Below, one piece after another: positions 6,196 to 45,043 of a stretch of DNA of 64,000 nucleotides. Source of the DNA: a virus; IMG/VR virus record IMGVR_UViG_3300045988_174111, positions 40,621 to 104,620 of that record. One strand, given 5' to 3'. A model generated the notes under the pieces. The model had not been told where the DNA came from and ran no database searches. It worked only from the letters and a program-made list of their open reading frames with translations. Numbering within the stretch: position 1 is the first letter of the stretch; each line of letters begins with the position of its first letter. The position numbers and the translations under genes are program-made.

Positions 6196-9100
6196 TTATA
6201 ACGTCAAAGTCACTATATTCGTTTCGAAATTCGCTCTTAAAATATTTGAATCCTTACGATTATCGTATGACAAACAACCATTTATAATAATTAAGTTCGA
6301 GCGGCTTCCCTCTAAAAGAGATGCCAATTGCTCATATTCCTGTTGAAATATAATGACTTCTAAGAATTCGTAATTTGCCTCTAAAATCAATCTGCACATA
6401 GTGTCACCTTTCCGAGTCTTTTTAATTTCCATATCGGAAACATAACCCGACACAACGACATATCCATTGTTAGGGCGGGAATCCGTATCATTACAGTCTT
6501 CTACATTCGCAAATTCATAGGCATCCGGGAATTCTGACTTGAATCTTTCAAAGATTTGTTGATAGTCAAAGAAGGCCAATCCTGAAACTTGTTTTTGTAG
6601 CAAAGCCCACCACCAAGAATCATTTGCGTGTAAATCCGCTCCTGACAGTACAGGGTCGTCGTCTTTTACTTCTGCTTTAACCCCTACTAAAAAGTCAACA
6701 AGCAAATCAATTCGCTTAGAAATATCAGTAATGCCTTCTAATTTGTCAAATGCCCCTGCCAAAATTAAATTTCGAATAATTCTATTATTCACAGCAGAAC
6801 CTTTCCATTTGTGCCTTGTAATAAAATCATTCAAAGACCAATACTGGCCATTTTCTTTGCGTTCCTTAATAATTTGAGTCGCGGCTTTTTCTGCGACTTG
6901 TTTTACCCCAGTAATTGACCAATATAACGCCTTTTCTTCGAAATTAATCACTACGTCAACATCGGAAACATTAATGTCAACTGGGCGAACTGTGCAAACG
7001 CCTGTCTTATTTATTTCTGCAATGTATCTTGAGTAATCTGTGTCCAAAGCATATTTAAACGCAACTGACCAATACTCAATAGGATAGTGAACCTTTATCC
7101 ATTGTGAAATATAGCCTGTAATCGCATAGGCAGCAGCGTGGCTTCGGTTGAACAGGTACGTCGAAGCCTTATCAATAGCGTCCCACACCTTTTCAGAGTA
7201 TTCCTGGGTGACGTTATAGTTGTCCCGATAGTAAGGGATAAACCGTTCTTTATACTGCTGGAGAGCCTCGTATTTCTTCTTTACCATCGCTTTACGAACA
7301 TCATCGGCTTCCACCAATGACAGCCCACCCAACTCACGACAAAGTTGCATGATTTGTTCTTGGTAGCAATTATGGACAATTATTCCTCCAACTGTGAAAC
7401 TATGAATATTTTCGACAGAGATATCATAGACCACCCTCTCCTCATCGTGTACAACTTCCTTCACCCTCCCCCACATATAATTCGTAGGAGATTTTCTTGA
7501 AATTTTCTTTTTAGAAAGCATTCGATACGGTAAACAATAAAACAAATCTTTCCAAGAAACTGTCAATTTATTCAATCGGGGGAAAATAGAAGAATGAATC
7601 TGATAAGACTGTAAAGCAAAATATATGTCCTCAAGAAGAGAATTATTGCACATCTTCAAAGTATCATTTTTCAGGCACCCATCGCCCTCTAATACCCCAG
7701 CAATCATATCCAAAGAATAATTACTTGGCAACCTTTTTTCATAGCAATTCTTCAGATAAAGTCCATATTTTTTCAAAAGACTATTAAATTTGTTTTCTTG
7801 ATAATTTTTACTAAAAAATCCATTCGATTTTCCTGAAACAGCTTTAACAGTCACTCTGATAGATTTACCAACATTTCCAGATTTTTTCACCTGTGAACGT
7901 TCTTTTATTGTAACCTCAAAATCAGAATCTAATTCAAGTAACAATTCCCTTAATCTATTTGCAATTTCAAGATTTGAAACTGTAAAATATGGAGAAGAAT
8001 GCGTCGAAGTTCCTTCCGCAATAAAATACCCAATTAACCAATGCTCAAGTTTTTCCCTCTCCGTCAAGGAGTCAATTCTTACAGGCTTTTCAAACCAACA
8101 TTTTAGTTCATCATTTTTAACAAGATTCTGAGCCTCCACCCATCCACGTTTTGTTAAAATTTTATGGTCTGGAGTACAAACAAGTTCCCTCCCAAAGTTA
8201 GAACGGACTCTAACTGTTTTCTTAACTCCATTATTTTTTAATAACAAAACTTTCTGAAAAGACCCGTCTTCAGTTTTAACCATATCCCCAGGAATAATAT
8301 CCTGGATTTTCTTAATTCCATTAAGAGTCAAAACTTCAGAATTTTCCGCAATACAGAAAACCCCATAAGTGTTATTAAGAATCGATTCCGTTCCAACGAA
8401 ATATTCTATCTCTTTCTTTCCTTCTTTTCTGACCACAAACTCATTGTGGAAGTTGTTCTCCATTGCTCCCGGACGATACAAAGAAATCGCTGCAATAAGG
8501 TCTTCAATATTATCAGGTTTCATTTGCTTACAATACCCTGTCAGCCCAGAACTTCCGAAGTGAAAATTATCTTCATTCCACCCATTCTTAAAGTATCGAT
8601 ATACCTCCTTGTCATCCAAAGGAATACTGAAAATATCCAAGTCCACACCTTCGTGTTCCTTAACTAAACGAACCATATCTTGGAATTTGTCAAACTGTTT
8701 CACTCCAAGAACGTCTTCCTTTAGGAAACCTGCAGCATCCATTTCACCGCCTTCCCATTCAGTCACATATTCATCACCGCTCTTTCGAATAGGAACCCAC
8801 CTAAACATGTCATTTTCATCCGGGAATACCATCATTGCACAAGCATGTATTGACTGAGCTTTAGGCGCAGGCATAATAAGCATTACTTCATTGATAAGGT
8901 CTGGGTGGCTCTTAACAAAATTCTTCACTTTCGAATTGGCACATGCAATTTTGAATAAATCTTCAGGTTTTCTGTCTTTAACATCAAAAGCCTTCATCAT
9001 CTCATTCGTAGACTGGAAATCTAGCCCATAAACTCTGGCCATATCCTTAATCGCAGCTCTTAGCTGAAGAGCACTATATGTTCCGACTGAACAAACCTGA

Positions 9101-10662
9101 TTCCACCCGTATCGTTCTTCCATGTATTTCTTGACACGAGGACGGTCTTCCCCAGGATAGTCACAGTCAATATCAGGAAGAGATACCTTAACACGACCTG
9201 CATTCAAGAAACGTTCAAAAAGTAGATTATACCTCATCGGGTCTAACTTCGTAATTCCAAGAAGATAGGAAACAAGACAGCCCCCAGCAGAACCACGGCT
9301 GATTCCAGTCATTATCCCATTTCTGTGACACCAATTAATAATATCCCACGTAATTAAGAAATAATCAATTGCATCACCCAATTTGATAACCCCTACTTCT
9401 CGGTCTATTCGCTCCATAATAACCTCTTCACCCCAATCCTCAATGAGGTCTGGGTGACGGTCAAGCCCATCCGATATAAGAGACCAAAAGAGGTCTTCAT
9501 TCGTTTCAAATTTCTTGGCTTCTTCTTTTGTCATTTTATAACGCGGTAAATGTCTTTTTTTAACGTCAATGACAAAAGTAATAGATTCGGCAATACTTTC
9601 AAGAAATTCCAAACCTTCTGTGAACCTTGAATAGACATCCATAAGGCCTTCATCTGTGTCTGGAAACATCTGTGAAAGCTCTGTAAATAATTGGTCGTTT
9701 GATTTGAAATATTGATTATCACTTTCGTATGCCGTTGTCCCTCCAATACTATGTAGGCGAGGCCTTATACAACTGTATTCTTCATCCAAATACCAAGCAT
9801 CAACCGACGGAACAGGTAGCAAATTTCTATCCATGAAGAACTTTTTCAAGTTCTTCAAATACCATTCGTCCCTACTGTTATCAACATATTCACATGGGTC
9901 AAGCTGATAGATAGCAGCATCCAAATTTAAACTTGATAAAACATCATAATCTAAGGTTTTGGGGTCCAGAAACAAAATCAAATCATCATTATCTCTCGTA
10001 ATTTGATTAAAATCTTGAAGGCCAATGTATTTTGGATTGTCACAGTTTATGAACTTATTTATCGTCAAAAGGTCTTTCCACCCCTTATCATTTCTTGCAT
10101 ACACTTTTACTGTGAATCTAATATCTCTTGGCTGGTCATATACGGTGCATTCCATCCCAATTATACTTTTCAGGCCGTTCTTTTGACATTCTGCCTGAAA
10201 CTTCAAAGAACCAGCTAGCGAATTCTTTTCACAAATCCCTAAAGTGTTAACTCCAAGAAATTTAGCTTTTTTACACCAATCAGAATACGTCCCGGAACCA
10301 GACATCATCTCATATTGGCCATGAACCCCAAGAAATACTTTAGTTTCAAATTCTTGTTTTGCAGCTCCAATATACTTCAATCGTGTCAACTTGACATCAT
10401 TTTCTTGCCCTTTTGACAACATGTAATACACCCCTCCAAATCGGTAAGCATAGAAGTCACAGTTTGTCTCAACTGTTCCATCTTCAGCCCCACGATTGGG
10501 GTCAGCAGGAATTCCAACAAAATTGAAACTGTCATCAAACATCGCTCCGTCAAAGGCTTCTTTATACAGCTCAAAAGTCTTGCCGCCAATTTCAACTATA
10601 TAGTCGGATAATTGTGTATAATCAAGTAAATTTTTTTCAAGGTATTCTTTAAATCTTTTCAT
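6196..10662 (-). CDS. dnaE: DNA polymerase III alpha (DnaE-type, PHP domain) interrupted by an intein
   Basis: PHP-like N-terminal region (LGVHGQYEMM...GICEKNSLAG). Palm and finger motifs GISRGSAGGCLVSYLLGIT, NLLFERFLN, SLPDIDCDY and ISLYRPG. The TYGVF / CYQEQIMQL...ADDVRKAMVKKK junction matches E. coli TYGIILYQEQVMQ once residues 770-1098 are removed. Confidence 0.9.
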   Translation of the reverse strand: MKRFKEYLEKNLLDYTQLSDYIVEIGGKTFELYKEAFDGAMFDDSFNFVGIPADPNRGAEDGTVETNCDFYAYRFGGVYYMLSKGQENDVKLTRLKYIGAAKQEFETKVFLGVHGQYEMMSGSGTYSDWCKKAKFLGVNTLGICEKNSLAGSLKFQAECQKNGLKSIIGMECTVYDQPRDIRFTVKVYARNDKGWKDLLTINKFINCDNPKYIGLQDFNQITRDNDDLILFLDPKTLDYDVLSSLNLDAAIYQLDPCEYVDNSRDEWYLKNLKKFFMDRNLLPVPSVDAWYLDEEYSCIRPRLHSIGGTTAYESDNQYFKSNDQLFTELSQMFPDTDEGLMDVYSRFTEGLEFLESIAESITFVIDVKKRHLPRYKMTKEEAKKFETNEDLFWSLISDGLDRHPDLIEDWGEEVIMERIDREVGVIKLGDAIDYFLITWDIINWCHRNGIMTGISRGSAGGCLVSYLLGITKLDPMRYNLLFERFLNAGRVKVSLPDIDCDYPGEDRPRVKKYMEERYGWNQVCSVGTYSALQLRAAIKDMARVYGLDFQSTNEMMKAFDVKDRKPEDLFKIACANSKVKNFVKSHPDLINEVMLIMPAPKAQSIHACAMMVFPDENDMFRWVPIRKSGDEYVTEWEGGEMDAAGFLKEDVLGVKQFDKFQDMVRLVKEHEGVDLDIFSIPLDDKEVYRYFKNGWNEDNFHFGSSGLTGYCKQMKPDNIEDLIAAISLYRPGAMENNFHNEFVVRKEGKKEIEYFVGTESILNNTYGVFCIAENSEVLTLNGIKKIQDIIPGDMVKTEDGSFQKVLLLKNNGVKKTVRVRSNFGRELVCTPDHKILTKRGWVEAQNLVKNDELKCWFEKPVRIDSLTEREKLEHWLIGYFIAEGTSTHSSPYFTVSNLEIANRLRELLLELDSDFEVTIKERSQVKKSGNVGKSIRVTVKAVSGKSNGFFSKNYQENKFNSLLKKYGLYLKNCYEKRLPSNYSLDMIAGVLEGDGCLKNDTLKMCNNSLLEDIYFALQSYQIHSSIFPRLNKLTVSWKDLFYCLPYRMLSKKKISRKSPTNYMWGRVKEVVHDEERVVYDISVENIHSFTVGGIIVHNCYQEQIMQLCRELGGLSLVEADDVRKAMVKKKYEALQQYKERFIPYYRDNYNVTQEYSEKVWDAIDKASTYLFNRSHAAAYAITGYISQWIKVHYPIEYWSVAFKYALDTDYSRYIAEINKTGVCTVRPVDINVSDVDVVINFEEKALYWSITGVKQVAEKAATQIIKERKENGQYWSLNDFITRHKWKGSAVNNRIIRNLILAGAFDKLEGITDISKRIDLLVDFLVGVKAEVKDDDPVLSGADLHANDSWWWALLQKQVSGLAFFDYQQIFERFKSEFPDAYEFANVEDCNDTDSRPNNGYVVVSGYVSDMEIKKTRKGDTMCRLILEANYEFLEVIIFQQEYEQLASLLEGSRSNLIIINGCLSYDNRKDSNILRANFETNIVTLTL
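7369..8355 (-). mobile_element. Intein (329 aa) with a double-motif LAGLIDADG homing endonuclease, inside DnaE
   Basis: Starts with CIAENSEVLTLNG (block A). Block B is CTPDHKILT. LAGLIDADG motifs are LIGYFIAEGTS and MIAGVLEGDGCL. Ends with VYDISVENIHSFTVGGIIVHN, with Cys at +1. I checked the codons: aca (C) at 8353-8355, att (N) at 7369-7371, gca (C) at 7366-7368. Confidence 0.9.
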
Positions 10663-11296
10663 GTCTTAATTCCTTTTTAACAAGCTCAGTTATATTTTCA
10701 CCATCTTTACATCCAAGTGAAAGAAAAGTTTGAGCAAACTTTTCACTTACATGTGAATTTATTTCGTAGGAATCAGAATGATAATCACAAAAAATTATCT
10801 CAACTTCTTTCCCGCATGAAGCCGAAAGCCTAAAAATTGCCTGAGCTTCAATAGGAAATCTAAGAGAACCAAAAACAACATCACACGCTGCTGATTCCTC
10901 GATTGTCATTTTAGACAAACGATTCGTAATATCATTGACAGTCCATCTTGCCCAAATATCTTCTCCAGCTATCTTCTTCAAATATTCGCCTGTATTTTGC
11001 AATATTTCACGGCCGGATACAAACGAAAAATCAGGAACTATTGAATTCCCAGAAGTTGGGAGCATAATGTTTTGTTTCAGTTCTTTCCATTTTGCATAAA
11101 CCGTTCCATCTAACTGAATACCTCTGTCACGTCCTGTGAAAGTATTCATAAGCGTTTGACGAATTCCCTCGCTGAAATCCCCTATAATAATCGAACGATT
11201 TTCTGAATCGGCCTTTGCTCTTAAAAATTCTGCACGATAAGACTTCCCGGAGCCAATAACCCCAACAAGCCCATAAATCTTTCCTTTATGGTTCAT
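10649..11296 (-). CDS. P-loop nucleotide kinase, dNMP-kinase-like (T4 gp1-like architecture)
   Basis: Walker A GVIGSGKSY at the N-terminus. About 215 aa. Loose collinearity with T4 gp1 as I remember it. Lies in a nucleotide-metabolism cluster. Confidence 0.5.
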   Translation of the reverse strand: MNHKGKIYGLVGVIGSGKSYRAEFLRAKADSENRSIIIGDFSEGIRQTLMNTFTGRDRGIQLDGTVYAKWKELKQNIMLPTSGNSIVPDFSFVSGREILQNTGEYLKKIAGEDIWARWTVNDITNRLSKMTIEESAACDVVFGSLRFPIEAQAIFRLSASCGKEVEIIFCDYHSDSYEINSHVSEKFAQTFLSLGCKDGENITELVKKELRHEKI

Positions 11297-11825
11297 ACTG
11301 TAACATAAATTTTTGAATACTTGTAAAAAGTTCCCAGTCCTTTGAATACTTTTTCATCAGATTCTCACAGTTTTCAATACACTGTAATAATTTCTTAGAC
11401 GAGTTCCCAAGGGCACATTCGTTTTTACAGAAAATCCACAAATCTAAATAATCACATGTCTTAAATAGGCGATACTGTAAATCAGACATTAAAGACTTAA
11501 TCTCAGAATCAGAATATGGTGCCAAAACTGTATCTCCATGACAAATCTCATATTCAATGATATCCCACGCGGAAGAAGTATTTTCATTAAATTTCTTCAC
11601 GCACGCATTAAGGTCGCCAGTAACACTTTCGACAAAATCATGAAGCAATACTTTGTCAAATACATTAATGTCGTAGGATACGTCTTCTTCGGAAGCAAAC
11701 CAACGAAATAACATACCTACTACGAGGCCATGCTCCAAGAGATTGTACCCCCTGTGGTGGGGGGTATTTGGCAATCTCTGGATATCTTTCATTCCTAAAA
11801 GGATGTCAATTTTTTTGTAATTCAT
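11286..11825 (-). CDS. HD-domain phosphohydrolase (YfbR-like 5'-deoxynucleotidase candidate)
   Basis: H...HD...D signature: HHRGYNLLEHGLVVG and VLLHDFVESVTGDL. Confidence 0.7.
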   Translation of the reverse strand: MNYKKIDILLGMKDIQRLPNTPHHRGYNLLEHGLVVGMLFRWFASEEDVSYDINVFDKVLLHDFVESVTGDLNACVKKFNENTSSAWDIIEYEICHGDTVLAPYSDSEIKSLMSDLQYRLFKTCDYLDLWIFCKNECALGNSSKKLLQCIENCENLMKKYSKDWELFTSIQKFMLQYEP

Positions 11826-11845
11826 GCTATATTTATTTTAGTGAA

Positions 11846-12958
11846 CTATCCAATAAATAATTCATTCAACAACGGGTTTTTAAACTCGATAGGCTGTTTT
11901 GTCCAATAACGATAAATTATTTTACCCCAATCGGAAAATAAACCTTTAAAAAATCCAAGTTCTTCAAGTAAATCTTCCTTCTTTAAGCCTGCACGACACA
12001 TCTCTTCAAATTGAGATAATTCCCCTATCCAGTAGTCGAACTCCTCTAATGTTTTAAACGTTGCATCGTATGTAAAGTTTATTCCGGAAGAATATAAATT
12101 CGGGTCTCTTTTAGCTATTTCTTCGACCATAGGAATAAAATCCTTATAGACGTGAAGATTATCTACCTTATGGTAATATTTTCCGACAGGCACGCCCACT
12201 ATTGCCGCAACATATTCCTGCATCAATGTAAAGTTAAATACATTCACTGCGCTAAACCCCCATATCAGGTCATTCGAACGCATATCAACATAACAGTTCA
12301 TCTTCCCATCGACAACCATAAAATGAATTGAACGTGTGCAAGGAGTATCCTTTGTTTCCAAGATAGCTGCCTTTTCTGAACCGCCTTCTTCATTTTGATA
12401 ATGAGCATTAAAATTGTCAGAAATAGGGTCGTGAATCGTAATAACCGCTTCACGAGTGTCAATATCCTGTTTGAATTTTTCAATCACAAAGCGTAATTGG
12501 TCAGTAACATTTTGGTATGGAGCTGGCCGTTTCAACTTTGTTTGGCGACCGTTATCGTCTGCTTTTCCGTTCTTATACTGACGTGGAAGGAGTTGTCCGG
12601 ACAATGTTACCATCGACTCAAAATTATCGCCGTAACGACGTATTCGAGGCCCATACCCAGCTCTCATAAATTTACCATCATCAGAAAAGTTCAACAAATT
12701 CTTTACATAGCTTGCAGGCATTTCCAAACTGTTATCTCCACGAGCAAGCCACAAACTTTCAATCCATCCTAATGTTTTGTTCCATTTACGTTCCGGAATA
12801 CGAACGTAACGGTCAGTTGGATTTGAAATTTCAATCAAAACTGCCCCAGGAAATTCTCTACATTGAAAGCCTCTTCTTGTAACATCAATTCCTCTTTCAA
12901 CTAGCCCCCGACTTAATAGGATGAGGGCACTACTTAAATTTTCTGCTTGAAAAAACAT
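11846..12958 (-). CDS. Divergent thymidylate-synthase-family enzyme (ThyA-like; either a true TS or a dUMP hydroxymethylase)
   Basis: DTPCTRSIHFMVVDGKMNCYVDMRSNDLIWGFSAVNVFNF...DNLHVY aligns with E. coli [39 protein letters not shown]...GDTHLY. The catalytic Cys and the Asn equivalent to N177 are kept. The protein is 370 aa and has large insertions. Confidence 0.75.
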   Translation of the reverse strand: MFFQAENLSSALILLSRGLVERGIDVTRRGFQCREFPGAVLIEISNPTDRYVRIPERKWNKTLGWIESLWLARGDNSLEMPASYVKNLLNFSDDGKFMRAGYGPRIRRYGDNFESMVTLSGQLLPRQYKNGKADDNGRQTKLKRPAPYQNVTDQLRFVIEKFKQDIDTREAVITIHDPISDNFNAHYQNEEGGSEKAAILETKDTPCTRSIHFMVVDGKMNCYVDMRSNDLIWGFSAVNVFNFTLMQEYVAAIVGVPVGKYYHKVDNLHVYKDFIPMVEEIAKRDPNLYSSGINFTYDATFKTLEEFDYWIGELSQFEEMCRAGLKKEDLLEELGFFKGLFSDWGKIIYRYWTKQPIEFKNPLLNELFIG

Positions 12959-12971
12959 ATCTCTAAATTAT

Positions 12972-14015
12972 TTATTCAACAATAAATTCTCCTGGCTTAG
13001 GAAGAACCGCATTCCATTTAGGAGGAAAGACAAAATTAATCTCCTTGGAGCTTTTTTCATACGTGTGTTTGATTCTTTCATTGCGCCCTTTATTGAAGGA
13101 AGCACCAAGCCCCTTGGCAAACTTACTTGTCTCACAGAAACAGTTTTGCAAATTTGTTAAAGTCGGAACAGGTTCCCAAGGTAAGGGATTCCATTTCATA
13201 CCGCTTTCTTTGCAAAATTTATTCATCAATTCTTCGAAATTTTCGTGAACCCATTTAATTACTCCCACATAATCATAACGTTTCCCGGACGCTCCTTCAA
13301 ATGTCCACCCGATTCCTTTTAAAGACCCTGGACCAGTAATGACAAAATCATTTTCCGAAAAATTAAACAAAGGGGAATAATTCAAGTCGATGCAATACTG
13401 TTGTGCAGTAAAGTCCCCGTATATTTTCATTTTTCGAAATACCCAATACAATTCTTCAAAAGACTTTGCCTCCAGAAAATCATACAAATGACCATTCTGA
13501 AATATTTCATCTTCGAAGATACGAAAATGCGCCCGATGCTTACTCATCCCCGTGATATGCTTGTATTCGGGGTATTGATAAAAGAAGCAATTAACGATAT
13601 ACGCATTCCCATAAATTGTATCACCACTTTCAATTACTTCATCTAAGAACTTAGCAATATTTTCTAGCCCTACTTCGTAGGTAATATCACCAAATTCTTT
13701 TTCAAGCAAGTCCCAAGTTTCGTTTTTGTTGAAATGCTTAAAAAGCAATATGCGAAAGAACATATCTTCTGGCTCATACTGTTTTCCGTTGTAAATTACA
13801 CGACTCAACAGGTATTGGCTCACACGGTCAAGGCATCTATAAACATTCGTAAACTTGAATCTCCGAAGTATTTCATCGTCTGTCCATGGTCCAACCTGTC
13901 CATTGTACTTCTTCCAGAAGATATTCATTCTTTCGCATATCCAATACAAAAACCAATTAAATGTTTCTAATGGGACTGGAATAAACTCATTTTCCTTTCT
14001 TTTTCCCATTTTCAA
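12972..14015 (-). CDS. Hypothetical enzyme; candidate aGPT-pyrophosphorylase-like DNA base-hypermodification protein
   Basis: 347-aa ORF between the ThyA-like gene and a P-loop kinase gene. The motif WTDDEILRRFKFTNVYRCLDRVSQ resembles, from memory, the conserved N-terminal motif of that family. Not verified. Confidence 0.3.
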   Translation of the reverse strand: MKMGKRKENEFIPVPLETFNWFLYWICERMNIFWKKYNGQVGPWTDDEILRRFKFTNVYRCLDRVSQYLLSRVIYNGKQYEPEDMFFRILLFKHFNKNETWDLLEKEFGDITYEVGLENIAKFLDEVIESGDTIYGNAYIVNCFFYQYPEYKHITGMSKHRAHFRIFEDEIFQNGHLYDFLEAKSFEELYWVFRKMKIYGDFTAQQYCIDLNYSPLFNFSENDFVITGPGSLKGIGWTFEGASGKRYDYVGVIKWVHENFEELMNKFCKESGMKWNPLPWEPVPTLTNLQNCFCETSKFAKGLGASFNKGRNERIKHTYEKSSKEINFVFPPKWNAVLPKPGEFIVE

Positions 14016-14733
14016 ATGTTTTAAACGAATTTCTGTCTATATAATCTGATTTTTTACAAAAAGCAATAAATTCATCACACAACTCAGAAAGTTCGAAAAA
14101 TTTTAAAATGTGGACACCTAAATCCCACACTGGAGAATCATAGGGTTGGTCATGTAAAACCACATTCCCTCCGGCATCGTTCACTTCTTTTCTCTCTCTT
14201 TGAGCCTTTTCAAAATCGTGAAGGAAAGTACGGTGCTTTCTCCACATGCAATCCCCCTTTGGAGGCTCGCCAGAGCGATATGTTATCCGAGCACAGTATT
14301 CATCCCACTGGTCATCACGATAATCGTAGCGAACGTGAAGAATGTTTGAAAAACCTGAACTCTCACACAAACTCAAAGGACGCAATCTCCAAGAAACTGT
14401 CGTACCTGCCCCATCAATTAGAACTCCATGACCTGCCTTCGAAACTTCTTCTAGGAAGAAGGAAAGCCCCTCAGCCTTGCAAAGTCTTGAAGTCATGCTA
14501 TCATACCCCTGCCAACGACGAACTCCCCCGTTCTCGTAAAACTTTCCCACAAAAACCATATTAAAGTCAGGTGAATAAACCCCAACTTCCTTTTCCTTTC
14601 CGTCAAGAGTTTTGAACTTATACGGGAGAAGTTCCATCCCTAAGGATTCTAAAAATTCCAGGAAGAGGTAAACCCTTGTGGACTTACCACTTCCAGAAAT
14701 TCCTTTTACTAAAACTATAGATTCACCGTCCAT
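13987..14733 (-). CDS. P-loop kinase (candidate 5-hmdU DNA kinase or nucleotide kinase)
   Basis: Walker A KGISGSGKST at residues 10-18. 248 aa. Overlaps the next gene by 29 nt, which suggests operon coupling. Confidence 0.45.
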   Translation of the reverse strand: MDGESIVLVKGISGSGKSTRVYLFLEFLESLGMELLPYKFKTLDGKEKEVGVYSPDFNMVFVGKFYENGGVRRWQGYDSMTSRLCKAEGLSFFLEEVSKAGHGVLIDGAGTTVSWRLRPLSLCESSGFSNILHVRYDYRDDQWDEYCARITYRSGEPPKGDCMWRKHRTFLHDFEKAQRERKEVNDAGGNVVLHDQPYDSPVWDLGVHILKFFELSELCDEFIAFCKKSDYIDRNSFKTFENGKKKGK

Positions 14734-14736
14734 TTG

Positions 14737-15420
14737 TTATTTCTTTTTCGGCGTTTTCTTTGCAGGCGCAGATTGAGTATCCTCAGCCAGTTCCAACGCT
14801 GTTGCGCGTTTCTTCACAGGCTTATCATCACCAAACTTAACCATACATTTTTCTTTTCCATCGCCGGACTGATATAAACGAACAACTTCGCCAACAGTGC
14901 TGGAACCTTTCAACGTTACTTTTGAGCCAACTTTCAGTCCTGGAACCTCTGTTGATTCTTCAAGATTCTGTCGTTTTGTTTCACGCGATTTTTCAGATTT
15001 TCCGGCCTTGGCACCCTCTCTCATTGATTTGTCTGACTTAGAAGGGGTCTTTCTTTCTTTCTGACGCTTGTCATATTCTTTTTCAGCAGCGGCAAGACGG
15101 GCTTCTTCTTCTTCGGTAAGCTTTTCTTCGGACTGATAATTCGAATTGCGTTTGTTCTGACGCTTCATAGCTGCTTCTGGTGAACCATCACCGTCTTCAT
15201 CTTCAGACTCTTTTTCTTCCTCTTTCTTTACCGGAGCCTTCTTCGGAGCCTTTTTAGGAGCTTCCTTCTTTTCTTCCGCTTCACCGCCCATTTTTTCCAA
15301 AAATTCCTGAGCAATTTTTACTTCCAATTCGGTTGATTCCTCATTGTTAACAATTTCTTCCAACTGTTCTTTCGAAAATTTTCTGTACTTCATGCGAAGT
15401 GCTAATGCATTGTTTGCCAT
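14737..15420 (-). CDS. Lys/Glu-rich protein with a small C-terminal beta-barrel-like domain
   Basis: 227-aa ORF. Central KKAPKKAPVKKEEEKE low-complexity stretch. The C-terminus GSKVTLKGSSTVGEVVRLYQSGDGKEKCMVKF looks KOW/SH3-like. Function unknown. Confidence 0.6.
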   Translation of the reverse strand: MANNALALRMKYRKFSKEQLEEIVNNEESTELEVKIAQEFLEKMGGEAEEKKEAPKKAPKKAPVKKEEEKESEDEDGDGSPEAAMKRQNKRNSNYQSEEKLTEEEEARLAAAEKEYDKRQKERKTPSKSDKSMREGAKAGKSEKSRETKRQNLEESTEVPGLKVGSKVTLKGSSTVGEVVRLYQSGDGKEKCMVKFGDDKPVKKRATALELAEDTQSAPAKKTPKKK

Positions 15421-15481
15421 AATCGTTTTTCTTTTTTGGTTAAAATTCTATTTTAGAAATAAATTATCACTTATCTCGGTA

Positions 15482-15489
15482 CAAATATA
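15482..15489 (-). promoter_or_regulatory. Bacteroidota-type -7 promoter element (TATATTTG on the minus strand)
   Basis: Plus strand caaatata in the 116-nt intergenic gap upstream of the ATG at 15420. No clear -33 TTTG. Confidence 0.4.
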
Positions 15490-15536
15490 ACGTAAATAAT
15501 TCGAATCCTAATGATTTTTCTCAATAAAAATCGAAA

Positions 15537-15986
15537 TTATTTTGTTCCAGTATGGCCAAATCCTCCAGTTCCTCTTTCTGTATCAGTAAGTTCTTCGACT
15601 GAAGAAACTTCGACAACTTCCTCGACTTTTGCATAGGGGGCAAAGACAATTTGGGCAATTCTGTCACCATTCTCAATAGTTTGTGGTTCTGTCGACAGGT
15701 TAATCAACGGAACACCTACTTCCCCACGATAGTCAGCGTCAATGGTTCCAGGAGCATTGATTACGGTCAGACCCTGTTTAACAGCGCAACCGCTGCGAGG
15801 TCTCACCTGACCCTCGTACCCCTGTTCGATTTCCATATACAAACCAGTAGGGATGATTTTACGCTCCATCGGAGCCAATGTGATTGAACCCTCGGGAAGA
15901 TAGGCACGCAAGTCCATACCCGAACTGTCTGGAGTTTTGTACTCCGGCAGAGCATTTGTGCTCTTGTTTACGATTCTTAATTTCAT
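15537..15986 (-). CDS. dut: dUTP diphosphatase (trimeric dUTPase)
   Basis: All canonical motifs are present: SSGMDLRA, PRSG, GTIDADYRGE, DRIAQ and RGTGGFGHTG. Confidence 0.95.
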   Translation of the reverse strand: MKLRIVNKSTNALPEYKTPDSSGMDLRAYLPEGSITLAPMERKIIPTGLYMEIEQGYEGQVRPRSGCAVKQGLTVINAPGTIDADYRGEVGVPLINLSTEPQTIENGDRIAQIVFAPYAKVEEVVEVSSVEELTDTERGTGGFGHTGTK

Positions 15987-19164: not shown

Positions 19165-21264
19165 TTATACTGCATCAACTTTAATCATTAAGGTGCTTTC
19201 TCTTAATCTATTAATTGCCATAAAAGAAGAGGAAACCGTATCATCATGCCCACTAATACTTTCGAGAGTTCCCTTGTCACTTCTAAATGCAATAGAATTA
19301 AATTCTCCAAACATTTGGTCTATTTTTTGAGAAGTGTCCGGATGATAAGGGCATTTAATAGCTCCTCTCTCAAATAACGCTGCAAGTGACGCCCATCCAG
19401 TTCTCAAGTCCTTTTTATTTCCCGAAGTAGTAGTGAACGGAGTAATATTTCTAATGCCCATTTGAACGCACATGTCCGCCAAAATATTTTGAAACCCATT
19501 GTTCTCAACGACAATTTCATTTGGCTTAAATGTTTGATTCAGCAAATTTATCTTCTGAATTTGTTCATTATGAGACAGCCCCTTTTCTCGGAAAATATAC
19601 AAAAGATAATAATTTCCTTGGATGTCTTTCCCCCAAACCGTGTAACAGGTATAATCGGCACCAACGTTACCAGATACGGCAAAGTCACAACCAATAACAA
19701 CTCTTTGAAGCTTAATAGGAAAAGACTCTATATTCTCAACGAGCCTGACATTTTCCATACCGATTGTGCTTCTCTTTAGTATCTCCCAAGGGAAAATCGT
19801 ACTGTCGTCAGATATAGGTACAACCAAATATTCTCGAGAAAATACGAGAGTCCCAAGAGATGCTTTTTCTTCCATAAGTTTCTTCCATGTAAAACGGTCT
19901 GGAGCTAATAGACGCCCGTCCGGGAAAATTGCTGGGTATTCAAAAACTTTGAATTTGGGGTCTTTTTTAAGTTCCGCGTATAAGTCCTCTTGCTGATATG
20001 GGGTTCCATCTACAATATTGTATCCATACGGCTCAACGATAGGGGTGATTGCTCCTTTAAACAGGTCTCTAAGTTTTTCTCTTTGTTCCAAGGAATAAAT
20101 ACTACTTTCGTCCGGCAAGTCATCACTCACTGCCGCCCCAACATGAAGCCCTCGAATAAACCCGTCCTTTCCGCGCAAATGAAGCTTCGTTCCATTTTCG
20201 CATTCTATACTAGTTGCGGCCAAAGAAGCCTTTCCAGTAGGATTCAACTTTGCTGCTAAAGCCTCGTTTACTCGAATTTCCTCAACAACTTTGTCAATGT
20301 GCTGTTTACCCAGCTTCTCCGTGTTGGTGATAATACAGGTTTCCTGACGATTCTTATTATCGGGAATGTCAGGTCTCATAAACGTTGGTCGTCTATAACT
20401 GTACAACCTCCACAATGGAAATGCCATGCAAAACTCATAAGAGTTGTGAACAACGGTTCCGTCTTCCAACTGGAATATATGGTCTCCGTCGCACATAAAA
20501 CCATAATAGGATTCTTCCCCTATGGGTTCAACACGTATATTCCCTCTTTCGAAGACAGGCTTATCGTAGGAAAAAACCCTATACCCCTGGAATCTTCTTT
20601 GTTTCTTCACAGGATACTTCAAGAATTGCCCCATCTCAATTTCAACATATTTTTTCTTCTTTGTATCCCACAGGCATAAAATGTGCGCTCGATTTACAGC
20701 ATAAGGCATTCCATTTTCCTGTTCGACTCTGAACATCTGTGAACGCCCAATATGACGTGTCAAAACTTTTCTCGGGGTAAAATCAACGCCCATCACCTCC
20801 ATTCCTGGATAAATGTCCTCAACATTTTTCACCGAAAAATCTGACATTAAAATTCTTGTCCCCCTCGCAAAACATTTTCCGTGGGAACGGGCAGCAAGAT
20901 AAGCACTATTCGGATAGAGCTGTACCATGTTTCCCCACTCAAGATTTCTCCACCCCTGACGGAAGTTCGGAAGCATTGTCGTCTTGAAATAATTATAGGA
21001 CTGAATTTTTAAAGTTTCATCCATAGACTCTTCTAATTGGTCTATATAATCAAGACGTTCTGTTTCTAAAGTTGAATTTAACGTCAGTACATTATTTGTT
21101 TGGATAAAAATTTCTGATAAAAGGGAATCAATATCGCCTGAATATCCGTTAACTAGCTGATTTATTGCAACTGGCGGCAAAGACTCTATCACATTAAATG
21201 CGGTAGAAAAAACTGTATCAAGCTGCTTATATGACAATTTTGAATCTTCATTAAAATGTATCAT
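19165..21264 (-). CDS. Terminase large subunit (TerL) interrupted by a mini-intein
   Basis: After intein removal the Walker A reads AARSHGK|SYEF. RNaseH-like nuclease motif VIGCDFAVSGNVGADYTCYTVWG. I moved the start to the ATG at 21262-21264 (MIHFNED), which lies directly after the upstream TGA at 21266-21268. Confidence 0.85.
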   Translation of the reverse strand: MIHFNEDSKLSYKQLDTVFSTAFNVIESLPPVAINQLVNGYSGDIDSLLSEIFIQTNNVLTLNSTLETERLDYIDQLEESMDETLKIQSYNYFKTTMLPNFRQGWRNLEWGNMVQLYPNSAYLAARSHGKCFARGTRILMSDFSVKNVEDIYPGMEVMGVDFTPRKVLTRHIGRSQMFRVEQENGMPYAVNRAHILCLWDTKKKKYVEIEMGQFLKYPVKKQRRFQGYRVFSYDKPVFERGNIRVEPIGEESYYGFMCDGDHIFQLEDGTVVHNSYEFCMAFPLWRLYSYRRPTFMRPDIPDNKNRQETCIITNTEKLGKQHIDKVVEEIRVNEALAAKLNPTGKASLAATSIECENGTKLHLRGKDGFIRGLHVGAAVSDDLPDESSIYSLEQREKLRDLFKGAITPIVEPYGYNIVDGTPYQQEDLYAELKKDPKFKVFEYPAIFPDGRLLAPDRFTWKKLMEEKASLGTLVFSREYLVVPISDDSTIFPWEILKRSTIGMENVRLVENIESFPIKLQRVVIGCDFAVSGNVGADYTCYTVWGKDIQGNYYLLYIFREKGLSHNEQIQKINLLNQTFKPNEIVVENNGFQNILADMCVQMGIRNITPFTTTSGNKKDLRTGWASLAALFERGAIKCPYHPDTSQKIDQMFGEFNSIAFRSDKGTLESISGHDDTVSSSFMAINRLRESTLMIKVDAV
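20443..20874 (-). mobile_element. Mini-intein (144 aa, no endonuclease domain) in the TerL P-loop
   Basis: Starts with CFARGTRILMSDFSVKNVEDI (block A). Block B-like VNRAHILCL. Ends with YYGFMCDGDHIFQLEDGTVVHN, with Ser at +1. Codons checked: aca at 20872-20874, gtt at 20443-20445. Confidence 0.85.
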
Positions 21265-21265
21265 A

Positions 21266-21940
21266 TCACACCAACTGAAATCCTTCTCTGAATCTTGATT
21301 CTTTTTTCGTTGACGCCACAGGGGTAGAAACTCCAACCCCTCGGAACTTCTCTATGTATTTTAACATAAGAAGGGCATTCGCTCTTGTATCATTCAACGC
21401 CCTATGAGCGTCAACAAGTTCGACCCCTTCAAGTCGGCAACAGGTTCCAAGCTTATAATTTTCCTGCTCAACTGCCCTATACCATGATAATTTCATAGTG
21501 TCCTCTACGAACTTCACATATTCCCATAAAGAATCTCCATAAAATTCAAACAAGCCTTCAAAAAAGGGTATATCAAACAGTTGAAAATTATGCCCGCATA
21601 AAATTGAACCAATTCGCGGATTTTTATATTTAACCAAAAAGGACTTTACTTTTTGGTAAACTTCTTTCGCGTTTTGGCCATTTTCCTTCAAATTTGAAAC
21701 TGAAAGGCCATGAACTTTCTCAGCTTCAGGATTATATTCAAGTCCGTCTTTGTAAGGCTGAATAATTGCATCGTACTCATCAACAATTTTCAAGGCATTC
21801 AAATCAATCACAACTAATGCAATTTCACATAATGCAACATCGAAAAAAGCCTTCTTTTCTGGCTTTCCTTTAGAAGCCTTGCTTGGAAGCCCACCTGTTT
21901 CGGTATCTGCAACTATCATATAATTAGCAGTCGTTTTCAT
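21266..21940 (-). CDS. DnaQ-like 3'-5' exonuclease (DEDDh)
   Basis: Exo I VADTETGGL, Exo II GHNFQLFDIPF, Exo III HRALNDTRA. Confidence 0.85.
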   Translation of the reverse strand: MKTTANYMIVADTETGGLPSKASKGKPEKKAFFDVALCEIALVVIDLNALKIVDEYDAIIQPYKDGLEYNPEAEKVHGLSVSNLKENGQNAKEVYQKVKSFLVKYKNPRIGSILCGHNFQLFDIPFFEGLFEFYGDSLWEYVKFVEDTMKLSWYRAVEQENYKLGTCCRLEGVELVDAHRALNDTRANALLMLKYIEKFRGVGVSTPVASTKKESRFREGFQLV

Positions 21941-21957
21941 ATAAAAATTATTTTATT

Positions 21958-22212
21958 TTAATCAATTAAATCTTTCAAAGCCTGTAAGTCCTCGTCCCTT
22001 TCATCAATATTTGAATAGACTAAGACTAAATTAATAACGGGATTTTTATCCCCTTTCAGCCCTAATGGGAAATCATTTAATACGATAGTTGGTTCTCCTT
22101 CATCGGTTAAATCACCCCTGAACTGTATAATATAATTTTTCCTAATTATTTGTTTGCTTTTATCGCGAAATTCGAATAAAAGCTTTCTTTTAGGTTCTTC
22201 CATAACTAACAC
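21958..22212 (-). CDS. Hypothetical protein
   Basis: 84-aa ORF that overlaps the HNH gene stop by 7 nt. Confidence 0.55.
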   Translation of the reverse strand: MLVMEEPKRKLLFEFRDKSKQIIRKNYIIQFRGDLTDEGEPTIVLNDFPLGLKGDKNPVINLVLVYSNIDERDEDLQALKDLID

Positions 22213-22604
22213 GTTTTTCGTTTTCCAAATTCATATTTTTGGTGACATTCTTCACAAGTCAATTCAATGTTACTCTTCTCAAGCCTTAACTCCGGATGAG
22301 CACCCTTAGACTTAATGTGACTAAAGTAAATTGGTTTAAGCGGTTCTAAGAGACGTTTCCCACAATGCGTACAAATGTGAGGACGCTCCGCCCATATTTC
22401 CTTAAAGAGAGCCAATTCACCCGTTGCGCGTCGCATTTTAGGTTTCTTTGCTTTACTTTTTTCAGCCCGAACTTCAGCCCTAGACATCCCTTCGTGAAGC
22501 CTCCTGTAATTACAGTCATCGCAAAGGCATTTTGTTCGATTTACAATAAACCTATATTTTCCACACTTCTTACATATTTGATATCTTTCAATCGTCTTTG
22601 TCAT
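22206..22604 (-). CDS. HNH endonuclease with zinc ribbons
   Basis: CKKCGK...CDDC and CTHCGK...SHIKSKGAHPELRLEKSNIELTCEECHQ give the H-N-H plus CxxC arrangement. Confidence 0.7.
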   Translation of the reverse strand: MTKTIERYQICKKCGKYRFIVNRTKCLCDDCNYRRLHEGMSRAEVRAEKSKAKKPKMRRATGELALFKEIWAERPHICTHCGKRLLEPLKPIYFSHIKSKGAHPELRLEKSNIELTCEECHQKYEFGKRKTC

Positions 22605-23831: not shown

Positions 23832-24428
23832 TTATGAATTTAATTTATTTTTCAAATATCTTTGCCTCGCTTCCGAAAGTTTCTTTCGATGCTCATCAGT
23901 AAATTTCTTTCCAAAGAAATGATGGTTCTCCCCACGCTTCTTTTCAGAAATACGTTTTCTTGAATCTTCTGAATGAGTTCTATGATAAAAGGGGTTCTTC
24001 TCACCTATCTTTGATTCTGACAGTTTCTTCCTCTGTTCAGCAGATAAATTTTCACGACGTTTTGCTTCAGAAATTTTCTTCTTGGCTTCTTCAGACATTT
24101 TCAATCCCACAGTTCCTTTATCTCCACCATCTGTCGAATTATACCCGTCAATCTTAGTGTTGAACCGCTTTATAAGCCTCATTTCAACGTAGTCAAGTTT
24201 CTTCTTCAGAATCTCTTTCGTAGGAGCGGAAACAGTCAAAACCTCTTCAACGATAAAGTTCTCCGCACCATACTTTCGAATGGCTCTGTGGAACTTATGA
24301 TTTGAACCTTTCTTAGAACTACTCAAATGTCGAACCCATCTATCTCCAATAGGAGTCACCGTCTGACCAAAGTACAGTTTCCCAGTGAGCAGACAGGTGA
24401 CGCAATATATGTGGCCGACACTTTTCAT
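23832..24428 (-). CDS. Free-standing GIY-YIG homing endonuclease (Seg/I-TevI-like) with NUMOD3-like repeats
   Basis: GHIYCVTCLLTGKLYFGQT...R...H...AIRKYGAENF is the GIY-YIG core. C-terminal repeats have the form xxKKKISEAK / RKKLSESK / RKRISEKK / RKKLSEA. Its ATG overlaps the upstream TAA by 1 nt (TAATG). Confidence 0.9.
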   Translation of the reverse strand: MKSVGHIYCVTCLLTGKLYFGQTVTPIGDRWVRHLSSSKKGSNHKFHRAIRKYGAENFIVEEVLTVSAPTKEILKKKLDYVEMRLIKRFNTKIDGYNSTDGGDKGTVGLKMSEEAKKKISEAKRRENLSAEQRKKLSESKIGEKNPFYHRTHSEDSRKRISEKKRGENHHFFGKKFTDEHRKKLSEARQRYLKNKLNS

Positions 24429-25813
24429 TATCCTTCATTCACCTTTACCATGACGCCTTCATATTCACCAGTTCCGGCTTGAGTCGGTACGGTAAACAGT
24501 TCATATCCTCCGTCAGCAGTCTTAGTTTCGAAGTCCCAAAAATCATCTTGAGTATCTTCAACGAATTCAGCCACATAAACTTCATCTGCTTGTGCAACGA
24601 CATTTTGTACAGCAATTTGATTATATGGGGAATCATCTCTAAGCCATCGTGAAAAGCGATAACCCGCTGCGGCTTGAGCACATATCTGAACTGAAGTCCC
24701 AATGGGCACGGAAATAGAATCTTCAGCTTTATTAATTGTCGTAGAATTATTAATTGAAACTCCCCCTTGAGAAGTCCCTCCATCTGAAGTCCTTACAGTA
24801 ATTTCCACTTCCCTTCCTGGCTCGGTGTCTTCTTCCAAAACAATATTAAGAGTTTCATCTTTATTAGAGACTAGCAAATTTCCAGTCTTCGTGATATATC
24901 CAGGTTTTGACACTGACCATGCCAATGTTCTTCCGCTAACTGCTTGAACAGTGTTGGTAGTAACTCCGTCTATAATGACTTGTGCATCCGCAGGAGTAGG
25001 GTTGATAAATATCGTATAAGTTTCACTTCCCGACCCCCCAGAACCTCCTAAAGACCAATATTGAGTGCGTTCATCAAGAATCGTAATTGAACCTCCATTA
25101 TTCCTTAATCGTGCAATATAATATTCATTATCTTCTTTATGAGGCATTGTTCCCTCAGAAGGTTCTTCAATTAATTCTAATTTATAGGAATCAAAAGTGT
25201 ATAGACCTTCTAATTGCTCATCGGTAAATCTTTGCCCCATTGGAATACTTCCAAGAACAATGACCCTTAATTGACTTTCGGCTTGAAAAGATACCCCTCC
25301 AGAGAGGATAATATTATTATCATTGATAATGTCAACAACTTGATAGACTTTGTCATTAAGAGGCTTAGAACCATCATCTTTGACAAATCTAATGCAAGTC
25401 GGAACACCTGAACTTTGACCTCTTACAATTCCATTAAAACGAACTGTTCCAGAAACATTTCCCGATGTATCAACTTGAACATAGCCATTCTCATAATTCC
25501 TAGAATCAGGCTTAACTTTTAGCCAATAATACTTTTGGTCATTTGGAATAGGGAAATCAATCTGATTTTCAACTTTATACGCTTTCAAATCCGAACCAAT
25601 GACATATCCGCCAAGAATATTCACGGCTCCAATTGTCGTAGACGCCATTACTTTAAATGCCCCACCAGCTTTTCCTCCAGGAGACACCAAACCAAAAGAA
25701 ATCGAAGCCGCAAAAATTGCTGAAACTTCAGATTTTTCGGAAAGAAACCCTATCATTCGGGTCAGTTCTTCTTTTTCAAGAAAAGTTCCTCTATGAATAT
25801 TTATTTTGCTCAT
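24428..25813 (-). CDS. Tail fibre or receptor-binding module protein
   Basis: 461-aa ORF beside the baseplate and lysis genes. It has a PEGA-like segment (INPTPADAQVIIDGV...SKPGYITK) and a C-terminal Listeria-Bacteroides-type repeat (AAAGYRFSRW...YVAEF). Confidence 0.45.
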   Translation of the reverse strand: MSKINIHRGTFLEKEELTRMIGFLSEKSEVSAIFAASISFGLVSPGGKAGGAFKVMASTTIGAVNILGGYVIGSDLKAYKVENQIDFPIPNDQKYYWLKVKPDSRNYENGYVQVDTSGNVSGTVRFNGIVRGQSSGVPTCIRFVKDDGSKPLNDKVYQVVDIINDNNIILSGGVSFQAESQLRVIVLGSIPMGQRFTDEQLEGLYTFDSYKLELIEEPSEGTMPHKEDNEYYIARLRNNGGSITILDERTQYWSLGGSGGSGSETYTIFINPTPADAQVIIDGVTTNTVQAVSGRTLAWSVSKPGYITKTGNLLVSNKDETLNIVLEEDTEPGREVEITVRTSDGGTSQGGVSINNSTTINKAEDSISVPIGTSVQICAQAAAGYRFSRWLRDDSPYNQIAVQNVVAQADEVYVAEFVEDTQDDFWDFETKTADGGYELFTVPTQAGTGEYEGVMVKVNEG

Positions 25814-25836
25814 AATTAAAATATTTTGTTCGAAAT

Positions 25837-44816: not shown

Positions 44817-44818
44817 AA

Positions 44819-45043
44819 TTAAGTTGTTTTTCCAGCACCTTGCTGGCAATCAACAAATTTTTTAAAAACAATATTCCCAGAAACTGAATTGATTTTATCA
44901 ATCAAACCTTGTCCAGTTAACTTGTCAAGAATATTCTTTTCTGTCAAACTATCTAAGATACTAGAAGGGTTCTCCTGCTGTTTCTGAACAGCAGATAAAA
45001 GTTCATCAACTTTTGCCCCAGTAAATTTCGATTTATATGCCAT
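44819..45043 (-). CDS. Hypothetical protein
   Basis: 74-aa ORF, co-oriented with its neighbours. Confidence 0.5.
   Translation of the reverse strand: MAYKSKFTGAKVDELLSAVQKQQENPSSILDSLTEKNILDKLTGQGLIDKINSVSGNIVFKKFVDCQQGAGKTT

Follow-up and report, generated by a model that had tools for sequence, protein, structure and literature searches.

The window analysed here is a 64,000-nucleotide stretch of a virus genome (IMG/VR record IMGVR_UViG_3300045988_174111, positions 40,621 to 104,620), and our subject is a cassette within it that includes a thymidylate-synthase-family (ThyA-like) enzyme, a P-loop kinase of the HMUD2 type and a protein of family PF18723. The cassette consists of seven consecutive minus-strand open reading frames (ORFs), which our ORF listing reproduced exactly where an earlier note on this DNA had placed them, with every motif quoted there present. 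The adjacent replicase gene, to which that note had also drawn attention, encodes a DnaE-type DNA polymerase III (Pol III) alpha subunit according to a domain scan. Family assignments in the cassette are from Pfam and PHROG profile scans, and the genes are as follows.

15537-15986, minus strand: dUTPase, trimeric type, 149 aa (PF00692, 3e-28; phrog_135, 4e-60)
14737-15420, minus strand: K/E-rich protein, 227 aa, without Pfam or PHROG family
13987-14733, minus strand: P-loop kinase HMUD2, predicted 5-hydroxymethyldeoxyuridine (5-hmdU) DNA kinase, 248 aa (PF18747; Walker A GISGSGKST)
12972-14015, minus strand: stand-alone PF18723 protein (HMUDK_hel), 347 aa (PF18723, 8.2e-76; motif FKFTNVYRCLDRVSQ)
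11846-12958, minus strand: ThyA-family enzyme, predicted dUMP hydroxymethylase, 370 aa (PF00303, 1.6e-17; PCT and RSNDLIWGFSAVN)
11286-11825, minus strand: HD-domain YfbR-like 5'-deoxynucleotidase, 179 aa (PF12917, 2.6e-13; HHRGY...LLHDFVESVTGD)
10649-11296, minus strand: deoxynucleoside monophosphate (dNMP)-kinase-like P-loop protein, 215 aa (phrog_139, 4e-11; GVIGSGKSY)
6196-10662, minus strand: DnaE-type Pol III alpha with an intein (PHP, DNA_pol3_alpha, finger, HHH_6, Intein_splicing and LAGLIDADG_3 domains)

This gene order, from the dUTPase through to Pol III alpha, recurs in ~35 related metagenomic loci (designated below by L and a number) and holds down to 40-45% protein identity, so the arrangement is not a chance juxtaposition. 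The start of the PF18723 gene overlaps the end of the HMUD2 gene by 23-29 nt. Compared with close relatives, these two genes have a pN (nonsynonymous divergence) of 0.05-0.09 and a pS (synonymous divergence) of 0.7-0.88, at which synonymous sites are saturated; for HMUD2 alone the values are ~0.08 and ~0.8. Both genes are under strong purifying selection, and pN/pS rules out that the cassette is a decaying remnant.

The ThyA-like enzyme resembles phage hydroxymethylases more than thymidylate synthases. It matches phrog_5131 at 7e-62, versus 6e-30 for the canonical thymidylate synthase family phrog_160, and the best phage matches listed are the proven dUMP hydroxymethylase SPO1 gp29 and proteins of SP8, SP82G, M6-like phages and Maribacter phages. 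Among proteins of known structure in the PDB, the CMP hydroxymethylase MilA is the best match (5e-20), and any thymidylate synthase scores 1e-9 or weaker. In a MAFFT alignment the enzyme is 30% identical to SPO1 gp29 and 21% identical to E. coli ThyA, and it conserves all of the ThyA nucleotide-site residues Cys146, Arg166, Ser167, Asp169, Asn177, His207 and Tyr209 (in window numbering Cys207, R227, S228, D230, N239, H269 and Y271). The alignment of N239 with ThyA N177, from which the earlier note had argued for dUMP rather than dCMP, is borne out by HMMER and MAFFT alike; the cytosine-specific MilA carries Asp at this position, and the Asn points to a uracil substrate.

The departures from ThyA fall on what is presumably the folate and hydride-transfer side of the enzyme, made up of the W80/W83 segment, H147, C168, R127 and the C-terminal carboxylate tail that closes the site. 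Here the W80/W83 segment reads NFSDDG, H147 is replaced by T, C168 by N and R127 by E, and the tail is exchanged for an extension of ~80 residues that is common to SPO1 gp29 and SP10 gp188. These departures match those of SPO1 gp29 and SP10 gp188. By homology, then, the 11846-12958 product is a predicted dUMP hydroxymethylase that groups with SPO1 gp29 and not with the thymidylate synthases. The expectation of a hydroxymethylase rather than an enzyme of plain dTMP synthesis thus stands, with SPO1 gp29 as nearest characterised protein and MilA as best solved relative. In the cultured flavobacterial Maribacter phage Colly_1 (L002, 69830-74589), the gene of the closest hydroxymethylase homologue directly follows those of a UDP-glucose dehydrogenase, an epimerase and a beta-glucosyltransferase, which suggests a glycosylated hydroxymethyl-pyrimidine in another phage of Bacteroidota.

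The kinase encoded at 13987-14733 matches PF18747, named '5-hmdU DNA kinase 2', with an E-value of 6.4e-21 (cut-off 25 bits), and in a tblastn comparison it matches gp243 of Salmonella phage ViI (YP_004327565; 5e-12). ViI gp243 phosphorylates 5-hmdU in DNA in vitro, generating 5-phosphomethyl-dU (5-PmdU) (PMC8989533). The earlier note had raised a relationship with the 5-hmdU kinase families, and the profile match and the ViI homologue both answer in its favour: HMUD2 is, by homology, a predicted 5-hmdU DNA kinase. PDB sequence searches with HMUD2 gave nothing useful.

The protein encoded next, at 12972-14015, matches 273 of the 281 positions of the PF18723 profile. Pfam now lists this family as HMUDK_hel; its older name, aGPT-Pplase clade 1, persists on a homologue in one phage record. 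What used to be clade 2, PF18724, goes by 'ADDT, amino acid:DNA transferase' in Pfam today. The proposed relationship with aGPT-Pplase enzymes therefore stood in part: the family match is clear (PF18723, 8e-76), but it is to clade 1, whereas the proven transferase is clade 2 (amino acid:DNA transferase, AADT, PF18724). Homologues that share the invariant residues include a ViI-like protein (orf00160), the C-terminal half of SP10 gp186, phiRSL1 ORF231 and LuckyBarnes gp38, and the 'aG/PT-PPlase1' column of Table 3 in Lee et al. 2018 corresponds to SP10 gp186 and ViI-type proteins. An exact-sequence look-up did not find the window protein on record, and PDB sequence searches with it returned nothing useful.

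PF18723 proteins are numerous, with 3,125 clusters at 50% identity (E <= 1e-3) and 3,796 member sequences in a single 90%-identity cluster. About one fifth of the top representatives are longer proteins, and a Walker A motif (GPDGVGK[ST]) precedes the PF18723 domain in at least 12 of 147 representative proteins. Many PF18723 proteins of ~550-600 aa (P0136, P0137, P0139, P0144, P0164 and others) have this N-terminal P-loop in a region that looks thymidylate-kinase-like. Fusions of a kinase to PF18723 are recurrent and include SP10 gp186; BLAST finds no similarity between the fused N-terminal P-loop parts and either HMUD2 or the N-terminal kinase of SP10 gp186, and several kinase subfamilies appear, from their sequences, to have fused to PF18723 independently. 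An AlphaFold2 model of the window protein is all-helical with a pLDDT of 94.3. Across 137 representatives R60, D63, Q206, D210 and G230 are invariant, and the motif C294-E295-x-x-K298 is kept in ~92%.

Gene neighbourhoods show how the kinase and the PF18723 protein are arranged. In 24 of 36 related loci the two genes overlap or lie at most 41 nt apart, in 10 a GIY-YIG homing endonuclease gene of 0.6-0.8 kb stands between them, and in two there are several genes. The GIY-YIG insertions imply that HMUD2 and PF18723 are separate genes with an insertion hotspot at their junction, and they rule out that the pair is a frameshifted fusion. Free-standing GIY-YIG/NUMOD3 and HNH homing endonucleases are encoded in the window (23832-24428, 22206-22604) and in relatives (L003:9394-10011 and others).

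Distant relatives place whole sets of enzymes in this interval. The insert of L038 (6902-9989) encodes a GATase_6 protein, a PF18724 AADT (9e-20), an amidoligase-like protein and a GNAT acetyltransferase. That of L178 (7785-10038) encodes a 363-aa protein of no known family and an AADT-like protein with the motif LESTLCC, and L177 (7046-9992), which is without HMUD2, has an APH/choline-kinase-like protein, a cytidylyltransferase and a GT1 glycosyltransferase. Because distant relatives hold such differing multi-gene inserts, the interval between kinase and PF18723 is a diversification slot, of which the window has the empty version. The slot genes probably specify different thymidine decorations.

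On its other side, the PF18723 gene is followed by the hydroxymethylase gene, at a distance of at most 54 nt in most loci. The adjacency is kept in unrelated phage contigs at 25-27% identity, in SP10 and in phiRSL1, and LuckyBarnes has the pair in reversed order. Of the loci examined, just four, all of them bacterial, lack this link between PF18723 and a hydroxymethylase.

Pfam scans of every window ORF of at least 90 aa detected no AADT (PF18724), pyridoxal-phosphate (PLP) enzyme, radical-SAM enzyme, flavoenzyme, glycosyltransferase or second ThyA or ThyX. The window is ~60% of a genome that spans 97-109 kb in relatives, and we walked ~45 kb beyond it in the IMG/VR relatives 073039 and 077657, whose RecA is 100% identical to that of the window. 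The walk covers all but ~1 kb of the remaining genome of these two relatives (the query 63227-63775 found no relative), and it likewise turned up none of these enzymes, whether AADT, PLP, radical-SAM, FAD, glycosyltransferase, ThyA or ThyX. A tblastn search with three AADT sequences was negative in all close relatives, and AADT occurs only in the distant relatives L038, L178 and L188. The walked regions encode an NAD-dependent ligase, SNF2 and UvrD helicases, RNase H, a class II ribonucleotide reductase, GroEL, a sigma factor, HU, a Tad2-like protein, a PNK-type phosphatase, a DUF2400 protein and BACON-domain proteins. The full-length DUF2400 protein (L129:4359-5117; E 1e-61), possibly glycosylase-like, lies in an early-gene region ~14 kb past the end of the window with the PNK-type 3'-phosphatase nearby (L129:7438-8193); a literature search on DUF2400 found nothing. 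The Tad2-like protein carries an anti-Thoeris domain.

Several neighbours of the central genes could shape the nucleotide pool. The dUTPase keeps the same position in relatives, as does the HD protein, whose best PDB match is E. coli YfbR (2paq, 2.6e-5) and which is a candidate dTMP (or dNMP) phosphatase that would exclude thymidine nucleotides. The 10649-11296 product, a candidate 5-hmdUMP kinase, is the least conserved of the cassette (43-64% identity) and has no Pfam or PDB match. Orthologues of the K/E-rich protein (43-81% identity) occur in the same position, and it may be a member of the pathway; in L179 a Rho_N-domain protein is encoded directly upstream of HMUD2, the position of the K/E-rich protein in the window, but the dUTPase anchor is undetected there. 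A 444-aa protein encoded between the capsid and portal genes (56236-57570) has a central NUDIX domain (5.7e-18), and could be a further nucleotide-pool hydrolase or have an unrelated role.

We propose that the cassette encodes a minimal pathway of 5-hmdU thymidine replacement and post-replicative modification, of the Iyer/Aravind-Weigele type, with PF18723 as a catalytic partner, and we give this reading a probability of roughly 0.62. The dUTPase would supply dUMP and keep dUTP out of DNA, and the ThyA-like enzyme would hydroxymethylate dUMP to 5-hmdUMP. The dNMP-kinase-like protein, and then host NDP kinase, would raise 5-hmdUMP to 5-hmdUTP. With the YfbR-like HD nucleotidase draining thymidine nucleotides, a DnaE-type replicase that accepts 5-hmdUTP would write 5-hmdU in place of T. 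After replication, HMUD2 would phosphorylate the hydroxymethyl group in DNA to give 5-PmdU, and PF18723, translationally coupled to it, would process the activated base. In a scheme comparable to that of the clade-2 amino-acid:DNA transferases, Cys294 may add to C6; loss of the phosphate would then yield an exocyclic methylene that is open to capture. Because the lineage lacks AADT and tailoring enzymes, capture may be of a hydride, with thymine as the product, or of a simple nucleophile from the cell, and virion DNA would contain the capture product mixed with leftover 5-hmdU or 5-PmdU.

Homology shows which family each cassette enzyme belongs to; the substrates of the HD and dNMP-kinase-like proteins, the catalytic role of PF18723 and the end product are what we infer. 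A catalytic PF18723 is favoured because of its conserved polar residues, the Cys-Glu-x-x-Lys motif, the kinase fusions, the precedent of SP10 and the purifying selection on its gene. In the hypermodifying phages known so far, whatever 5-hmdU is left over is turned into T by an enzyme yet to be identified (PMC8989533); PF18723 may be a candidate for this conversion. Overall, the earlier note's contention that the gene set fits the logic of hypermodified thymidine better than plain dTMP synthesis agrees with the PF18723 and PF18747 matches, the SPO1 gp29-type enzyme, the dUTPase, and the HD and dNMP-kinase-like proteins.

A number of observations weigh against this proposal. To our knowledge, no PF18723 protein has ever been shown to be active. 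A Foldseek search of the model against the PDB, a library not checked for clade-2 entries, gave no significant match; the best weak matches are HhH-GPD DNA glycosylases, which agree with the original description of PF18723 as 'glycosylase-like' but give no close likeness to any solved structure. Alignment of clade 1 with three clade-2 sequences by hhalign is likewise not significant (probability 2.5%, E 0.019). In favour of catalysis, its sole local match places C294 on the clade-2 catalytic Cys motif, which is suggestive only. Clade-2 enzymes work with a Cys thiolate and a Glu close by: the catalytic residues of PaMx11 gp46 are Glu243, Thr244 and Cys247 (PMC11472151), and Cys and Glu are essential in M6 gp51 and ViI gp247 (PMC8989533). 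The purified-enzyme reconstitution of the ViI base 5-NeOmdU used gp67, gp247 and gp226 and left out gp160, and the kinase domain of SP10 needs no PF18723 half for its activity (PMC8989533). Pfam now labels PF18723 a 'helical domain' of the kinase. PF18723 stands beside glycosyltransferases in LuckyBarnes, phiRSL1 and L177, where neither annotation nor Pfam shows a DNA kinase in the stretch covered, and it occurs in a bacterial defence system; a kinase-dependent role is thus not universal. A dCMP deaminase was not found. Finally, the window is 64 kb of a ~100-kb genome, the remainder being seen through relatives and ORFs of at least 60-70 aa.

The component families of the proposed pathway are all known, and SP10 is a precedent for a kinase, PF18723 and a hydroxymethylase without clade 2. 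The gp185-gp188 cluster of Bacillus phage SP10 (with hydroxymethylase gp188) and the window share the order P-loop 5-hmdU DNA kinase, PF18723, hydroxymethylase, near a DNA polymerase, and a clade-2 transferase is undetected in either. SP10 makes alpha-glutamylthymidine plus T (Lee et al. 2018, Table 3). Unlike in the window, its kinase and PF18723 form one polypeptide, the fusion gp186, and BLAST with HMUD2 does not pick up this kinase. SP10 has, besides, a second kinase and a radical-SAM neighbour, its PF18723 domain is only 23% identical to the window protein, and it infects Firmicutes, whereas the window phage probably infects Bacteroidota.

ViI, the source of the 5-NeOmdU pathway, shares with the window the underlying logic of hydroxymethylase-based 5-hmdU DNA as well as homologues of gp243 (HMUD2 family) and of gp160-type PF18723. 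However, ViI builds its hypermodification with the AADT gp247 (PF18724) and the PLP decarboxylase gp226, also has the gp67 kinase, and disperses these genes round the genome, whereas those of the window form one tight operon-like block. The hmU phages SPO1, SP8 and phi-e (dUMP hydroxymethylase, dNMP kinase, dUTPase/dTTPase, dTMP nucleotidase) share the pool-shaping logic, and the likeness extends to the departures of SPO1 gp29 from ThyA. SPO1-type phages end at 5-hmdU and are without kinase and PF18723 genes (Lee 2018), both of which the window has. Metavirome clusters with AADT, amidotransferase, amidoligase and acetyltransferase genes have already been reported (Lee et al. 2021, Fig. 2; PMC8989533). 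L038 is a cluster of this type that shares the backbone and flanks of the window (HMUD2 ... PF18723, hydroxymethylase, HD, Pol III alpha) and whose slot, unlike the empty one of the window, holds four extra enzymes. The suggestion that the chemistry could be new remains possible, but the gene content does not indicate it, given that similar clusters are known.

There is also a bacterial counterpart. DS-4/NTTI, reported with DefensePredictor (Science 2026), comprises a thymidylate-synthase-like (TS-like) protein, a small dNMP-kinase-like P-loop protein, PF18723, a ThsB-like TIR protein and Nmad2, and has been validated experimentally as an anti-phage system in E. coli (PMC13092281). In BLASTP comparisons the window proteins are 27.5% identical to the NTTI TS-like protein (3.7e-26) and 31% identical to the NTTI PF18723 protein (4.9e-22), in which the Cys-Glu-x-x-Lys motif also occurs (GACEIDK). 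The NTTI kinase has no detectable similarity to either window kinase. Unlike the window cassette, NTTI is chromosomal and has the TIR and Nmad2 effector or sensor genes, and neither of these two proteins had a tblastn match in the whole window. A profile scan of GTDB recovered PF18723 genes at 33-45% identity, many in Bacteroidota, and a scan with the single protein gave no match. Several of these loci are on contigs of >100 kb, and L188, at least, looks like a binned phage contig. In the bacterial loci L189, L190, L191, L194 and L195, mostly from Bacteroidota, PF18723 is encoded beside a ThsB-like TIR protein and Nmad2, and in three of them a TS-like gene is also adjacent; L192 and L193 have PF18723 without TIR, Nmad2 or TS-like partners within 6 kb. 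Judged by its genes, the cellular arrangement of PF18723, TS-like protein, TIR and Nmad2 is the NTTI/DS-4 system.

A broader reading, which we raise tentatively and only as a whole, is that hydroxymethylase, P-loop kinase and PF18723 form a self-sufficient ancient unit. PF18723 would then represent a second class of Cys-dependent enzyme, different in structure, that works on phosphorylated 5-hmdU in DNA. It could supply the thymine-forming activity long sought at the polymer level in hypermodifying phages, or be a transferase with a substrate of its own. The window would make its final base without AADT, and bacteria would have weaponised the same trio in DS-4/NTTI.

Among explanations that depart from a catalytic PF18723, the one that survives best, though we think it unlikely, makes PF18723 a non-catalytic helical partner of the kinase that binds DNA or flips bases. 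The end state would then be 5-hmdU, partly converted to 5-PmdU, and the charged base would block restriction enzymes. The frequent fusions to P-loop kinases, the current Pfam name with its implication of a helical partner, the HMUD2/PF18723 gene overlap, which suggests translational coupling, and the lack of any downstream transferase found in the lineage all suit this explanation, and phosphorylation alone shielded DNA from NcoI in vitro (PMC8989533). It sits poorly with the activity of the SP10 kinase domain on its own, reported in the same study (PMC8989533), and with the clusters, several in number, that have PF18723 and no detectable HMUD-type kinase. The conserved polar set and the Cys-Glu-x-x-Lys motif resemble an active site more than a binding surface. 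We also know of no report of 5-PmdU as the final base of any phage.

A role as a weapon seems improbable. Here hydroxymethylase, kinase and PF18723 would, as in DS-4/NTTI, make or install a modified pyrimidine harmful to competing phages or to host DNA, in superinfection exclusion or host takeover. The validated E. coli system has the same kinds of components (PMC13092281), two of the window proteins are homologous to its TS-like and PF18723 proteins, and NTTI-like loci occur in Bacteroidota chromosomes. However, no TIR or Nmad2 partner was found in the window, the cassette lies inside a replication module with a dUTPase, an HD nucleotidase and a dNMP kinase, and distant relatives insert AADT, GATase and GNAT genes in the same cassette, which fits modification of the phage's own DNA.

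Ordinary nucleotide metabolism, with a divergent thymidylate synthase, two nucleotide kinases and plain thymine in DNA, is very improbable: phage records routinely label such genes 'thymidylate synthase' and 'guanylate kinase', and the catalytic Cys, Arg, Asp, Asn, His and Tyr of ThyA are all kept, but the PF18747 and PF18723 matches far exceed cut-offs, the nearest characterised enzyme is a hydroxymethylase, the folate-side residues are replaced just as in SPO1 gp29, and PF18723 is tied to hydroxymethylases outside the four bacterial exceptions.

The window carries capsid, portal, terminase and baseplate genes and thus belongs to a phage genome. Its capsid protein is 92% identical to that of an uncultured phage from human faeces, 34% identical to those of the B. 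thetaiotaomicron phages DAC16-23 and SJC03, and 28% identical to those of SPO1-like phages; the window or its relatives also encode BACON and Listeria-Bacteroides repeat domains. A Bacteroidota host, as the earlier note had supposed, is plausible because of the 34% capsid match, the BACON and repeat domains and the faecal sources, but it is not proven. Megablast of the cassette found no match among 50,697 phage records, and so no cultured close relative. Bacteroides phages are absent from the matches listed for the hydroxymethylase (best 50) and PF18723 (best 40), and one 50-kb chunk of Bacteroides phage DAC16 gave no match. The replication module resembles that of the 'Gratiaviridae' (Benler 2021), compared by published description only; CRISPR spacers assign these phages to Bacteroides and Parabacteroides, and thymidylate or hydroxymethyl genes are unmentioned in that description.

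Other features of the window lie outside the cassette. A 1295-aa protein (40386-44273) has at least seven Flg_new_2/Listeria-Bacteroides repeats, and smaller proteins (24428-27999, 44286-44849) combine the same repeats with a head-fibre domain. These are likely adhesins or fibres and a clue to host range. Three genes are interrupted by inteins (6196-10662, 19165-21336 and 57582-59591). The intein in Pol III alpha has Intein_splicing and LAGLIDADG endonuclease domains, and the Pol III alpha of the relative L003 is intein-less (1160 aa). The large terminase carries Hom_end_hint, and a 669-aa protein adjoining the portal has an intein with a DUF559/Vsr-like endonuclease. All long ORFs of the window (1-64000) are on the minus strand, GC skew is negative in 32 of 32 segments of 2 kb (-0.13 to -0.26), and no tRNA genes were detected.

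What PF18723 does has been in question since 2013, and the occurrence of the family in the defence system DS-4 makes the question more pressing. In the window PF18723 stands in its plainest setting, a minimal and abundant case that is informative for comparison, and the lineage provides a natural comparative series in which the interval between kinase and PF18723 is empty, holds a homing endonuclease or holds the enzyme sets of the more distant relatives. If the proposed pathway is correct, a widespread lineage of human-gut phages packages DNA whose thymine has passed through, or keeps, a 5-hydroxymethyl-derived modification. This would bear on restriction evasion in Bacteroidota, on sequencing and base-calling bias in gut viromics, and on the design of Bacteroides phage tools.

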